Of a stretch of DNA of 64,000 nucleotides, positions 9,499-46,950 are shown one piece after another. Position 1 is the stretch's first letter. The number at the start of each line of letters is the position of its first letter. The notes under the pieces were generated by a model. It searched no databases, had not been told where the DNA came from, and was given only the letters and a program-made list of their open reading frames with translations. The stretch is from positions 6,208,001-6,272,000 of the forward strand of contig OZ001293.3 of NCBI GenBank assembly GCA_963921275.4, given 5' to 3'. The stretch is from an uncultured Hormoscilla sp. GTDB lineage: Bacteria; Cyanobacteriota; Cyanobacteriia; Cyanobacteriales; Desertifilaceae. The position numbers and the translations under genes are program-made.

Positions 9499-10719
9499 CT
9501 CCCGAACAACAGGGACTACTAGAAAAAGCTTCAAGAAGTCTGCAAGCTGCCAGAAGTTTAAGGGGAATTGGTTTTGCTGAATTTGCTGCCTCTCGTGCAT
9601 ATTACACCATGTTTTATGTGGCTGAAGCATTTCTAGAAGGGGAAGGACTATCTTTTTCTAGACATTCTGCTGTAATTGCGGCCTTTGGTCAACGGTTTGC
9701 TCGTACTCAGCGGGTTCCTGCTGAGTACCACCGCTACTTAATTAGTGCAGTGCGATTCGTTCTAGTCTAACGTGGGCAACTACGGAACGCTAGGCCAGGT
9801 CCAAACTGGTAACTCTGGTATTCATGGGGGTTAGATTCCCTCTCTCCAAGTGTGGGAGTAACACCGGTCCTTAGTGCTGCTGAGTCACATCACGGTGGTG
9901 CGGAGCAAGGACTTAAATGTAGGATAGCTAGCAGCCTAAGCTAGTGACGCCGCTAGGAAAGATGCTAATGGCTAGAACAAGCGAACCTGTGTACGCCTCG
10001 TTATCTAGAACCAGCGAAATAAGGCTTAAAGCGCTGGCCCAAAAGGGAAATGGTAGTTTGTGCTGGTTCTTGCACTTGGCCAGTATCGCACTCTAAGAAC
10101 TCCCGGGGTATAGCAGGGGCCTAAAAGCATCGTGAAATGATACTAGGGAACGAAGTAACTTCTCGTGTGCTGTCTAGATTGGACAAGTTAGATGTAAAGC
10201 GCAAGCCGCGAGGGGAGAGATAGCCCGAGAAGCTAATGCCTAGGGTAACGCCTATGGATATGATGGGGTGTTCCTCATCCAGCTGACGCGGGTTGGTTAA
10301 AGTAGGAAATCTTGGGTAAGAGTATCTCTAAGACGCCGGAGGCCTCTCGAAGGTTGGATGACTGGTAAAACAGACTTGGAAATGGTAATACTAAAGGTTA
10401 TCTGGCAGCGCCGCTTACCAACCAGGAAAGGAGTGAAATCGCATGAGATGAGGGACAAGTGGAGCAATCCGTAGTAATCCTAGTAGTGACAATGCCCTAC
10501 TTGCCAGTAGCCGGATGCGGTGAAAGTCGCACGTCCGGTTCCGAATGGGAGGGTTAGGGGGTGACCCCTAGCTCGACCCCGACTGAACAAATCCGTTTGA
10601 GGGGAGATTATAATGTAGAGCCAAATATAACAGACGTAGAAGCAGATAAAATAATAGATCGTGCCGAGCAATTGCTAGAATTTGCATTGGCAAACATTGA
10701 CTCACTCCCGCCTCCATAG
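9495..10719 (+). CDS. HEPN-domain protein split by a group II intron (exons 9495-9749 and 10585-10719)
   Basis: SRAYYTMF, HSAVIAAFG; joined exons read YLISA|EQIRLRGDYNVEP...LPPP* in frame. Confidence 0.88.
9750..10584 (+). mobile_element. ORF-less group II intron, type A copy 1 (835 nt)
   Basis: Starts GTGCG; domain 5 AGCCGGATGCGGTGAAAGTCGCACGTCCGGTTC; domain 6 hairpin; EBS1 loop TGCACT (10071-10076) complementary to exon end AGTGCA; no RT ORF. Confidence 0.93.
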
Positions 10720-10726
10720 GTATAAT
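10697..10726 (+). promoter_or_regulatory. Putative sigma70-type promoter TTGACT-18-TATAAT
   Basis: Near-consensus hexamers upstream of intron A2 and the cyclo-ligase gene. Confidence 0.45.
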
Positions 10727-10750
10727 CCAGAACTCACCTAGATTAGTGTA

Positions 10751-43612: not shown

Positions 43613-44455
43613 TCATTGAAAACCTGTAAATTGAGACCGCGCTAGCTGGGTTTGCTGCAAGACCTGTGCGAGTGCGGTCCAATCTTCCTGCTGGATATGG
43701 GAAATCAGCTGGTCGAGGGAATGGCGATAATTATGGAGCGATCGCAACAATTCGGGCCGATTATACTGTGCCATCATCAGACCCAATTCGGGATTGCCGC
43801 CTCCCACACGGCTTGTATCCCGGAAACCAGAACTAGCTAGCTGTTGTACTAGCTTGAGTACCGCCGGATCGACCATGCAGGCGTCAATCAAACTGGCACT
43901 GACCATCACCGGCAAATGAGAAATTAAGGCCACGGCCCGGTCATGGTCTGAGGGGCTACAGTGATACACTCGAGCTTGGAGCGAGCAGGCGATCTCGCAG
44001 AGGGTTTGCAGGGAAGCGGGTAGTGTTGAGGCCACAGGTGTTAACACGTAAGGTCGGCCAGCAAACAATTGTCGCTGTGCCGCATCTATACCACTCTGGG
44101 TAGTTCCCGCCATCGGGTGTCCGCCGACAAAATTAGACCAGATGGGGGTAATTGCTTCGACTACTGGCGTCTTGACCGAACCCACGTCTGTTAAAATTGT
44201 CGCGGGAGATAAATGAGGAATAATTATCTTGACAGTGGGGACGATAGATGCGATCGGCGTGCAAATAAACACGATATCGGCGGCGGCAAGCAGACTGAAA
44301 GCAACGCTAGCATCGTCGGCAACCCCGCGCGCGATCGCCAGTTCGCAAGTATGTTGGTGGCGGCTGACTCCCAAAACCTTAAACCCCACCTGGCGCAAAT
44401 CCAAGCCCAAAGATCCGCCAATCAGCCCCAGTCCTACAATACCAATATTCATCAT
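43613..44455 (-). CDS. tyrA: Prephenate/arogenate dehydrogenase
   Basis: GLGLIGGS, DVGSVK, GGHPMAG, HDRAVALISHLP, GFRDTSRV. Confidence 0.93.
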   Translation of the reverse strand: MMNIGIVGLGLIGGSLGLDLRQVGFKVLGVSRHQHTCELAIARGVADDASVAFSLLAAADIVFICTPIASIVPTVKIIIPHLSPATILTDVGSVKTPVVEAITPIWSNFVGGHPMAGTTQSGIDAAQRQLFAGRPYVLTPVASTLPASLQTLCEIACSLQARVYHCSPSDHDRAVALISHLPVMVSASLIDACMVDPAVLKLVQQLASSGFRDTSRVGGGNPELGLMMAQYNRPELLRSLHNYRHSLDQLISHIQQEDWTALAQVLQQTQLARSQFTGFQ

Positions 44456-44530
44456 GGTGCATCATTTTTAATCAGCTCAGCCCTAAAGGCATGATAGCCT
44501 TTAGTCCCAAACAAATCATAGATACCAGCG

Positions 44531-46950
44531 ATGGAAGCAGAGGAAATAGTAAAAAGCTATGCAGCTGGAGAACGAGACTTTGGTGCAATCAAGCTGACTG
44601 AGTTGAATCTGAGTGGCGTCAATCTCAGCGAAGCCAATTTCAGCCGTGCCAACTTATCTGTAGCCAACCTCAGTGGTGCCAATCTGAGTAAATCAAACCT
44701 GTCTAACGCCAAACTGAATGTGGCCAGACTCAGCGGTTGCAATCTCACCCATGCCAACTTCAACGGAGCCATCCTGAATGTAGCTAATCTGGTGTGAGCC
44801 GATCTGACTGGTTCGACATTGGTTCAAGCTGGGTTAATTAGAGCAGTGCTCATTAGAGCCGAACTTTCTTATGTAGACCTGTCTCGCGCTAACCTGACTG
44901 GAGCAGATCTGAGAGAAGCTACCCTCAGACAAGCTAATCTGAGTGGAGCCAACTTGTCGGAGGTGGATTTAAGGGGAACTTCCCTGACGGGAGCTAACCT
45001 ACAGGGAGCCAGTGCGATTCGTTCTAGCCTAACGTGGTCAAACACGGAACGCTAGCCCGGTTTCATTAGCCGGGAACTCTGACCGCATGGGGGTTAAATT
45101 CCCCTCCCCCCAGGTACGGGGGTGACACCGGTCCTCGGTGCTACGAAGCGACATCATCGTGGTGCTAAGCGAGGACTCAAATGTAGGATAACTGGCAGCC
45201 TAAGCCGGTGACGCCGCTAGGAAAGATATCCAAGGTTAGAGCAGGCAAACATGTGCAAGCCTCGTTATAAGGAACCAGCGAAATAAGGCTATATGCGCTG
45301 GCCTAAAAAGGAAATGGTAGCTAGTATTAGTTTTAGACTCTGGCTAATATAGTACTCAAATAGCTCCCGGGGTATAGTGTGGACCTAAAGGTATCGCGAA
45401 ATGTTGTTAGGGAACGAAGTAACCTCTCGTGTGCTGTCCATCAGGACAAGTTAGATGTTAAGCGCAAGCCACGGGGGGAGGGATGGCCCAAGAAGCGAAT
45501 GCCCGGGGTAATTCCTGGGATAACATCTACAGTAATGTAGATGATGCTGGGTAGCCAGCGCTGACGTGGGTCGGTGATACTAGGAAGCTGCTGGAATGAG
45601 TAATCCTAAAAAGCCACGGAACTAATCCGAAACGCAAGTGGAGGATAAGGTATGGATAACTGGTAAAACTGACTTGAAAATGGTGATACTAACGGTTATC
45701 AGAACAACCACTCGCTAAACCAGGAAAGGGAAGAAAAGACAGGCGGCAAGGGCTAACGGAAGTAATTCCTATTAAGTCTACCTATGAAAAGGGCCTAGTA
45801 CCCAGTAGCCGGATGCGGTGAAAATCGCAAGTCCGGTTCCTCAAGGGAGGGTCGGGAAGCGATTCCCGGCTCGACCCCATCCACTTACATGGCACTGATA
45901 TGAGTCGGTCTGACATGAGCGGGGTAGACCTGAGAGAAGCGGACCTCAGACATGCCAATTTGAATCGCACTAATCTCAGTGGCGCTAACCTCAGTGGTGC
46001 TAACCTGAGATGGGTTGACCTGAGTGGAGCGAATCTCAGTTGGGCGGATCTGAGCGAGGCCAAGTTGAGCGGCACCAACTTAATTGGATCTGACTTGAGC
46101 AATGCTAACTTAGTCAATACTAGTATGGTACATGCTGACCTGACCCAGGCAAATTTGATTAAGGCAGATTGGAGCGGTGCGGTGCGACTTTAACTGGGGC
46201 AAAACTTTATGGTGTCTCGCGGTTTTGCCTGAAAACAGAAGGGATGACCTGTGAGTGGGTTGACCTCAGCCCCGATGGGGACCATTCTTATGTCTATCAT
46301 TTCACCCCAGAAGAATTTCAGCAGTTTTTCAATCCCACTCCACCTAAGGTAGAGATTGTTGTCGATGCCAGGTTGGATCACTTAGCTAGCTTGGCATTGG
46401 CTAATGCTTATTATCAAATTGCTCGGCAATACTCAGCCATGAGCAGTCCTCCCAGTATTAAAGTGGGTCACCGTCGCACCACGCTCACATTTGTCCTTGA
46501 CAGCGACGAGCATTATTTCCCATTGCCTACGTTGCCATTCTTCCCTTTAAGGATGCTGCCGCTACTCAGGGACGTCTGAGCGATTTGATGGATACGATAC
46601 GATCGCCCAGTCTGGACGAATACCTGAGGATTAAAGATCACAATCATATTATGAAAGTCAACCAGTATCTGAGTAAAATCATGGGCAAGCTAGCAAAAAT
46701 ATCACTTACCTCAAATCTGCCGACAAAATCAGTTAAATTCTTTGATGTTCCCACCCAGGTGGTGTTGACAGATTCCAGCGCTCAGATCTTAACTGTATAT
46801 CATCACCAAAATTTTGGCAAGCGTTTCTTAAATGCAGTTGCTTTGCCTAAAGATGATTCGGTAAAATATCTGAAATACTTGACATCCCCTCTGCCTACCA
46901 TGAGTCTGATAGCTGATTTTATTAAGGGTTTCTATGACATGGTAAAATAG
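44531..46950 (+). pseudogene. Long pentapeptide-repeat protein, disrupted
   Basis: YAAGERDF start; TGA at 44795; intron 45012-45882; 5-bp duplication near 46180; further frameshift near 46520. Confidence 0.85.
45012..45882 (+). mobile_element. ORF-less group II intron, type B copy 2 (871 nt)
   Basis: GTGCG start, D5 AGCCGGATGCGGTGAAAATCGCAAGTCCGGTTC; removal gives GANLQGANLHGTDM in frame. Confidence 0.93.

Follow-up and report, generated by a model that had tools for sequence, protein, structure and literature searches.

Group IIB introns without open reading frames have multiplied across a Hormoscilla genome and were probably spread with the help of reverse transcriptases of other introns

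The stretch of DNA analysed here (the window, 64,000 nucleotides (nt)) covers positions 6208001-6272000 of contig C1 of the 7.03-Mb genome of an uncultured Hormoscilla sp., which is 96.7% complete. By self-BLAST and reading, it was found to contain seven full group IIB introns lacking an open reading frame (ORF) and one 5'-truncated remnant of type B, with a total of 6.45 kb (Table 1). One copy of type A splits a HEPN gene in sense and the other is intergenic; B lies antisense within a Uma2-type gene and in sense within a pentapeptide-repeat gene, and the B remnant, whose 5' part was probably lost through deletion, is located where a TPR-pentapeptide ORF ends. The initial annotation had reported eight insertions of five types spanning about 6.45 kb, and all eight pieces proved real; C and E are nested inside D. 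The two A copies are 99.6% alike, and the two full B copies are identical.

As had been noticed, these introns offer no room for a reverse transcriptase (RT) ORF: the longest stop-free stretch is 58-124 amino acids (aa) in the representatives of the five window families and 155 aa across all 341 full copies of the genome described below. The five loops in domain I that had been singled out proved to be exon-binding site 1 (EBS1), that of B being the 6-mer AGACTC rather than the 7-mer AGACTCT, and the claimed match to the flank in five of the seven full copies was reproduced as 6/6 pairing with the 5' flank (G-U allowed), while E and the B copy at 45012 pair at 4/6. The ends of types A, B and C, six of the eight in the window, scored above the cut-off of Rfam RF00029; D and E, whose domain V is mispaired, fell below it. 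As two of eight ends escape this cut-off, such introns are probably undercounted. The window, with seven full copies where 64 kb contain 3.2 on average, is dense in introns but not special within the genome, where 5 of 107 bins reach at least seven.

A profile search for domain V gave 502 hits in the genome, comprising 387 of the ORF-less lineage, 83 of the RT-intron type and 32 degenerate or other ones. When starts were paired with ends, at least 341 full ORF-less copies in 53 families were obtained (B 143, A 73, followed by 16, 14, 8, 8 and 7); 46 of the 387 lineage 3' ends were excluded, 30 without a paired start and 16 outside 700-1150 nt or otherwise unclustered. The full ORF-less copies cover approximately 4.5% of the chromosome, and all paired introns cover 6.6%. 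Thus, the burst that had been proposed for the window is real, but it is genome-wide rather than local. The near-identity of copies with unrelated flanks also held at this scale, the 143 B copies occupying 118 sites and the 73 A copies 61. B copies differ from their consensus by a mean of 1.24 nt and 63 of the 143 are identical; with copies nearly identical within A and within B, these two bursts appear to be young. The ORF-less lineage itself is old, because the five window families are only 62-73% alike. It is present in all four other genomes of the genus, where one lineage pattern matches 1, 24, 17 and 32 sites (three of these assemblies are fragmented) compared to 360 sites in this genome, and therefore the burst appears specific to this lineage. 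The domain V pattern of the lineage was recovered at no fewer than 25 loci, all Hormoscilla among the matches listed. Private mutations of A and B copies are C>T in 66 of 83 distinct single changes and CC>TT in 11 of 16 distinct doublets, and C>T together with CC>TT doublets is the pattern known from ultraviolet damage. Family A is also biased in strand (52 copies on + and 21 on -, p=0.0004), while coding DNA is evenly split and B is unbiased; the GC skew revealed no clear replichores.

The guides of these introns covary with their sites throughout the genome. In this analysis, three of the 341 copies had no clean EBS columns, and repeated sites were counted once. Over 295 family-site pairs, EBS1 pairs at 5.24/6 with its own sites compared to 2.6 +/- 0.06 with swapped sites, none of 1000 swaps reaching the own-site value, and EBS2 pairs at 3.86/5 compared to 2.26; with A and B left out, the values are 5.36 and 4.09 against 2.56 and 2.09 for swapped sites. 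The proposed relation between EBS1 and 5' flanks therefore extends genome-wide, and EBS2, EBS2a and EBS3 are used as well as EBS1. A blind scan, in which each domain I column was tried against each target position over 60 guide groups, returned as best partners nt 324-329 of B for -1..-6, nt 257-261 for -9..-13, nt 364 for +1 and nt 255 for -14 (0.75 versus 0.31 expected). The last of these corresponds to EBS2a-IBS2a (IBS, intron-binding site), a pairing which is needed for DNA integration, is stabilised by the RT and is dispensable for splicing (PMC8643678). EBS2a pairing is the strongest sequence evidence for an RT placing the ORF-less introns. Among the minor families, it occurs at 48 of 60 sites where domain V is paired and at 32 of 55 where it is mispaired. 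A purine at -15, which is explained by no intron base, is found both where ORF-less introns are inserted (239 of 294 sites) and where RT introns are (38 of 47). The recovery of EBS1, EBS2 and EBS3 together with the RT-dependent EBS2a points to RT-assisted retrohoming as the very likely route of insertion, and EBS2a and the -15 purine suggest that an RT encoded in this genome mobilises the introns in trans. Taken together, we propose, with a probability of roughly 0.85, that these ORF-less group IIB introns spread by reverse-splicing into DNA using the RT-maturase of RT-encoding introns of the same genome.

Family-specific guides at matching sites also support the suggestion that the introns diversify by changing their EBS guides. 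The site consensus of B is AA-CCTTA-nn-GAGTCT with A at +1 (118 distinct sites), and that of A is AA-CTAGA-nn-AGTGCA with A at +1 (61 sites). Two guide sets occur in otherwise close bodies in F3 (8 and 6 copies) and F5 (5 and 3), which appears to be retargeting caught early. The guide GGGAAT/AACCC, shared by F7 (the family of C), F11, F27 and F43, is directed at a motif that is conserved in domain I of this same intron lineage, so these families specialise in nesting. Insertions of B into B occur as well, and tandem B copies are present in the genome; a head-to-tail B joint in run X9 was not accepted as a circle, as the kind of run is unclear and tandem copies exist.

Table 1. Positions of introns, guides and repeated elements in the window (position 1 is the first nucleotide of the window)
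Feature	Position	Strand	Details
Intron A, copy 1	9750..10584	+	family F1, 73 copies; 835 nt; EBS1 TGCACT 6/6
Intron A, copy 2	10751..11585	+	F1; 835 nt; EBS1 6/6, EBS2 5/5
Intron D	15364..18212	+	F20, 2 copies; own length 914 nt; EBS1 CATATG 6/6, EBS2 5/5
Own segments of D	15364-15455, 16450-16909, 17851-18212	+	outer host in a nest of three introns
Intron C	15456..16449	+	F7, 5 copies; 994 nt; within domain I of D; guide GGGAAT
Intron E	16910..17850	+	F4, 8 copies at 8 sites; 941 nt; within domain IV of D; EBS1 4/6 here
Mispaired domain V of E	17775..17806	+	AGC triad and first four pairs retained, then G-A, U-C, G-U, U-U
Mispaired domain V of D	18137..18168	+	same variant as in E
3' remnant of B	27327..27516	+	end of domain IV, V and VI; without 5' part
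Intron B	32391..33261	-	F0, 143 copies; 871 nt
Intron B	45012..45882	+	F0; 871 nt
EBS2a of B	45266	+	pairs with target -14; blind covariation scan
EBS2 of B	45268-45272	+	TAAGG; pairs with target -13..-9; blind covariation scan
EBS1 of B	45335..45340	+	AGACTC; pairs with -6..-1; family consensus GAGTCT
EBS3 of B	45375	+	pairs with +1; 0.82 observed versus 0.37 expected
Domains V (45807-45838) and VI of B	45807..45882	+	bulged A at 45874, then 8 nt; intron end CC
Replacement patches, examples	17797-17802, 45840-45843		
Small repeated elements	17107-17129, 15917-15952, 17372-17407, 15984-16100		

The ribozymes carry the hallmarks of group II introns: domain V contains the AGC triad, a bulge of 2 nt and a GAAA loop, and domain VI contains a bulged A, with 59 copies, D and E among them, conforming only in part. 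The lower helix of domain V is paired in 278 of the 341 copies, with the GAAA loop present in 274 of these 278. The 5' end GTGCG fits GUGYG, and the element runs from GTGCGA to CCCCNNNN, both ends being fixed by empty sites. At the 3' end, the 53 families terminate in CC (20), CT (19), AT (13) or AA (1), most of them departing from the AY rule; gamma pairs with the last base in all 33 families that could be parsed (17 A-T, 15 G-C and 1 G-T; 20 unparsed). In IIB2 introns, the bulged A lies 8 nt from the 3' end; the ORF-less lineage deviates from this rule, its bulged A being followed by eight nt, one more than in the RT introns of this genome. A TGACAAGG-like motif ahead of domain V is common to ORF-less and RT introns. 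The remaining IIB2 features, as defined in PMC4649490 and PMC8643678, were all found: EBS1, a stem-less EBS2, EBS3, EBS2a and the 5' end GUGCGAUUC.

The expectation of an RT/maturase encoded elsewhere was borne out, as a TIGR04416 search gave 123 matches in the genome, 44 of them above the cut-off, and 13 RT ORFs are intact. These 13, each of at least 580 aa, belong to the 49 full-length RT introns, the other 36 having none. RVT_N, RVT_1, GIIM and HNH were all present in the two RT ORFs tested, and the nearest solved structure to the RT is 6me0. ORF-less introns have invaded 20 of the 49 full-length RT introns. In one RT-intron family of nine copies, the commonest, A is found in seven and B in eight; as the A haplotypes differ among these copies, the insertions are independent. 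The B insertions in this family are antisense and leave ORFs of 482-503 aa in seven copies and 431 aa in one, while the intact ORF has 596 aa and its HNH domain, at 513-558, lies beyond the truncated ends. The ORF-less RNAs align with RT introns in domains I-III, and the start of domain IV resembles the start of an RT ORF above all 200 shuffles in four of 11 families (B, F3, E and D), traces of both ends of the ORF being recognisable in domain IV; the domain IV remnant of B is closest to the RT subgroup that B invades. No RT-encoding member of the ORF-less lineage was found among the paired elements of this genome, nor any RT ahead of a lineage domain V; tblastn of RTs against the 341 copies yielded weak matches over domain V only (best E 0.039). 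No RT-bearing member was found in 400 other genomes of the phylum, with two candidates scored per genome; five of these genomes contain short domain I matches at six loci, all adjoining RT ORFs. G028:C1, a 3.8-Mb single-contig genome from another family, has 98 group II RT matches at E<=1e-40, which represent a large and separate expansion of introns with an RT.

Concerning host genes, context was scored for top-level copies after in-silico excision: 86 copies are in sense within ORFs, 51 are antisense and 154 lie between ORFs. The genes nrdJ, recJ, prfC, zwf, eno, ribD and queG are interrupted by sense copies and account for seven of the 40 single-copy sense loci scanned (47 in total); among the 20 antisense loci scanned (28 in total), none splits a housekeeping gene, a ychF match lying upstream of the model start. 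No second copy of eno, zwf or nrdJ was detected in the genome by tblastn, the split prfC is likewise the sole one found, and no PF02867 reductase was found in it, the assembly being 96.7% complete and class III enzymes falling outside this test. In the four congeners, the sites at eno, zwf, prfC and nrdJ are empty and gap-free over 116-120 nt. Judging from single-copy genes that are split and congener sites that are empty, the copies in these four genes very likely splice. Domain V is paired in all five introns in the central housekeeping genes nrdJ, recJ, prfC, zwf and eno, and also in the full set of seven split-gene introns; as 59 of 112 minor-family sites are paired, five of five is suggestive only. 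In family F3, domain V is paired in two of 14 copies, one of which is the zwf copy. One further candidate, a lysA-like gene interrupted by an F3 copy with mispaired domain V, was rejected: it encodes a different decarboxylase and contains an in-frame stop, and two other matches to its family are intact. The nrdJ locus (L037, 848310-852697) contains both an ORF-less intron and an intein, and the eno gene of one congener (G004:C14:9070-12772) has its own RT-encoding insert at a different position.

On the basis of these comparisons, the following course may be envisaged. A single ancient CL-type RT intron would have lost its ORF and kept both ends of domain IV. A helper RT would bind the intron RNA, aid its splicing and copy the intron after reverse splicing, and mutation of EBS1 and EBS2 would open new sets of targets, the A and B bursts being due to loose targeting. 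Copies in needed genes would have to splice, so that their domain V stays paired. Finally, antisense B would remove the endonuclease end of helper ORFs and so damp the burst.

Several observations weigh against this scheme. The ORF-less RNAs are far from every RT intron of this genome, with short BLAST pieces of which the longer ones are mostly 66-80% alike; given this distance, and unlike in the TeI3/TeI4 pair discussed below, no RT is singled out as helper. The likeness of domain IV is not above all shuffles in seven of 11 families, including A, although some regions were imperfectly anchored. The two biggest families show loose EBS2a pairing, with 35 of 61 sites for A and 55 of 118 for B. 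The rules for EcI5 and the IIB1 and IIB2 classes (PMC8643678) agree with ours in that EBS2 pairs with -13..-9 and EBS2a, two nt upstream, with -14, but strict Watson-Crick pairing of EBS2a is reported there, while A and B comply at about half of their sites; targeting is thus loose in the burst families. Of the 341 copies, 59, including D and E, have a mispaired domain V, and 15 of these 59 also lack the GAAA loop while the domain I receptor is unchanged. Copies within ORFs favour the sense orientation only weakly, with 24 of 29 in A (p=0.03) and 35 of 62 in B (p=0.07), housekeeping genes at seven of 40 sense versus none of 20 antisense loci are too few to be decisive, and the ribD insert lies near the 3' end. 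RNA data gave no sign of splicing: the single raw-read run, X11, of which about 6% was read, yielded 0 reads, and RNA assembly X1 contributed one 757-nt contig within an intron, from a 90-95% relative, which provides no splicing test.

The same origin is compatible with a burst that is over or stalling, in which B itself was the main cause of the loss of the helper of A and B, leaving copies that still splice but are otherwise recent fossils. The antisense B in eight of the nine ORFs of the commonest RT family would fit this, as would the 36 of 49 full-length RT introns without an intact ORF and the private, mostly C>T, mutations of the copies. However, 13 intact RT ORFs persist, one of them within that commonest family, 63 of the 143 B copies are identical, and B and E have different flanks in other runs. 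We consider a finished or stalling burst unlikely.

For the mispaired domain V, an assembly error is excluded in the case of E, since the variant is spanned by contigs from other runs, with 0 differences for X6 and 1 difference for X8. The explanation that we somewhat favour is a tolerated variant which, with support from the RT, stays active enough for retrohoming. Another possibility is that mispairing arose after insertion, was spread by gene conversion or by recombination of the 3' ends of complementary DNA, and was purged or repaired where splicing is needed. More than 10 families that are not related to one another contain the same variant, as does one intron in each of two congeners, indicating that 3' ends are mosaic, and in F3 the zwf copy is paired at its 3' end whereas 12 of the 14 members are not. 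On the other hand, all 16 F2 copies and all eight E copies are mispaired, and six F2 copies, each at an unrelated site, have the same sequence over their full length; the mispaired families diverge as little as A and B, and their guides pair as well (5.32/4.08) as those of families with a paired domain V (5.42/4.08). Such a spread after insertion is considered unlikely. It is more doubtful still that introns with a broken hairpin splice and jump with domain V supplied in trans by intact intron RNAs. If true, a bacterium would split group II catalysis into substrate introns and a trans-acting catalytic RNA, a step proposed for U6 small nuclear RNA and the origin of the spliceosome, and hundreds of protein-free introns would rely on a few shared maturases. 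Patches such as CTCTT, TCCA, CTCAAG, GGGAGACC and GCAGATC recur in domains V and VI of unrelated families and RT introns; motifs of the CTCTT type are not enriched genome-wide (ratios 0.92-1.10), and pairing of the patches with AAGAGCG elsewhere in the intron was not significant (p=0.08). In addition, repeats of 20-35 nt of the GCGCAGCG type were observed in the loops of C and E as well as in RT introns, as was an element of about 110 nt, another copy of which is at 48241-48348 of the window.

An RT that is not encoded by an intron, either free-standing or of the host, with the RT introns as bystanders, would agree with the distance between the ORF-less RNAs and those of the RT introns, and a few short divergent RT matches are present. 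Those of these matches that were translated, however, are short fragments, every intact RT ORF checked runs into its own domain V, and EBS2a and the -15 purine are shared with RT introns; this source of RT is therefore very unlikely. Some sites do recur where the host is itself a repeat, but segmental duplication, MITE-like (miniature inverted-repeat transposable element) transposition and assembly artefact are already refuted by the 118 and 61 distinct sites of B and A, the guide-site covariation, the gap-free empty alleles and the presence of 99-100% of the sampled words of B in six other runs. MITEs are defined by terminal inverted repeats and a target-site duplication; the flanks here are without duplication and the empty alleles are gap-free, so that this candidate failed the test. 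With intron ends, a gap-free empty site and movement that would proceed via RNA, the MITE-like label of the initial annotation does not hold, and a comparison to short interspersed elements fits better.

The scheme of ORF-less introns mobilised by RT introns is not new in itself, as it has been published for Thermosynechococcus elongatus, where trans retrohoming of the ORF-less TeI3 with the RT intron TeI4, both IIB1, was shown by assay (Mohr et al. 2010, PMC2882425). Common to both systems are ORF-less introns that go back, here probably, to one ORF deletion, EBS-distinct families, twintrons in RT introns and ORF remnants in domain IV. Like TeI3, the introns described here have no ORF, coexist with related RT introns in the genome and bear distinct EBS at matching sites; unlike TeI3, their ribozyme is not near-identical to that of the RT introns, giving short BLAST pieces and distinct domains V and VI. 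There are 17 ORF-less copies in T. elongatus compared to at least 341 here, and its ribozymes are close kin, whereas ours form families 62-73% alike and far from the RT introns. Its introns are IIB1, while ours have an IIB2-type 5' end and differ in lineage age and at the 3' end too. Few copies lie in genes there, but central genes are split and helpers are cut by antisense inserts here. No multi-copy families with mispaired domain V were met in the available text on TeI3/TeI4, where two single mispaired TeI4 introns are called impaired. What stands out here is how large the set is, together with the splitting of central genes, the parasitism on helpers and the apparently mobile mispaired families.

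Other large sets of introns are also known. Arthrospira platensis NIES-39 harbors at least 150 group II introns, 79 without RT (PMC2853384), and a survey gave 101 in Arthrospira as the maximum among 1,790 representative bacterial genomes (PMC8919778). Both cases represent cyanobacterial expansions in which some introns lack an RT, but the counts here, obtained by different methods, are 502 for domain V and 341 for full ORF-less introns, and no guide analysis was met in the available text of these papers. The IIB introns of Trichodesmium erythraeum share the 5' end GUGCGAUUC (IIB2), ORF-less introns in coding genes, twintrons and, on the reading proposed here, maturase help in trans; splicing of such ORF-less introns in vivo is documented there (10 of 17; PMC4649490). 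They number in the tens, and, as far as the available text goes, a burst of near-identical ORF-less copies is described only here. Nested homing and bacterial ORF-less introns are known from the nested ORF-less introns of Methanosarcina and from C.te.I1 of Clostridium tetani, respectively, and bacterial ORF-less introns are considered rare and nearly always found beside closely related RT introns (PMC4424553). No work on Hormoscilla introns and no comparable case was found in the literature searched, most subscription journals lying outside the search. Models of spliceosome origin need group II introns that lose their protein, multiply to hundreds, enter needed genes and share machinery, and this genome may represent a natural model. 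It offers approximately 60 natural guide sets and opens the specificity of helpers, the intron load that a genome tolerates and trans catalysis to experiment, and compact introns with loose or tight targeting are potential gene-targeting tools.

Apart from the introns, the nucleotidyltransferase-HEPN pair at 9166-10719 of the window, the HEPN gene of which is split by the sense A copy, is likely a toxin-antitoxin module, and an ApeA-like HEPN protein of the anti-phage defence type is encoded at 24802-26193. The genome is rich in GCGATCGC, which we take to be a cyanobacterial mark. GTCGAC, ACGCGT, CGTACG, GTGCAC and TTCGAA are very strongly avoided genome-wide (ratios 0.02-0.11), which suggests several restriction systems. 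Contig C3, with 31 kb and a G + C content of 17.6%, is unlike the remaining assembly and is possibly foreign. Local duplications with no relation to introns were observed in the window at 47410-49244, 51892-55042, 56948-57320 and 60814-61247.

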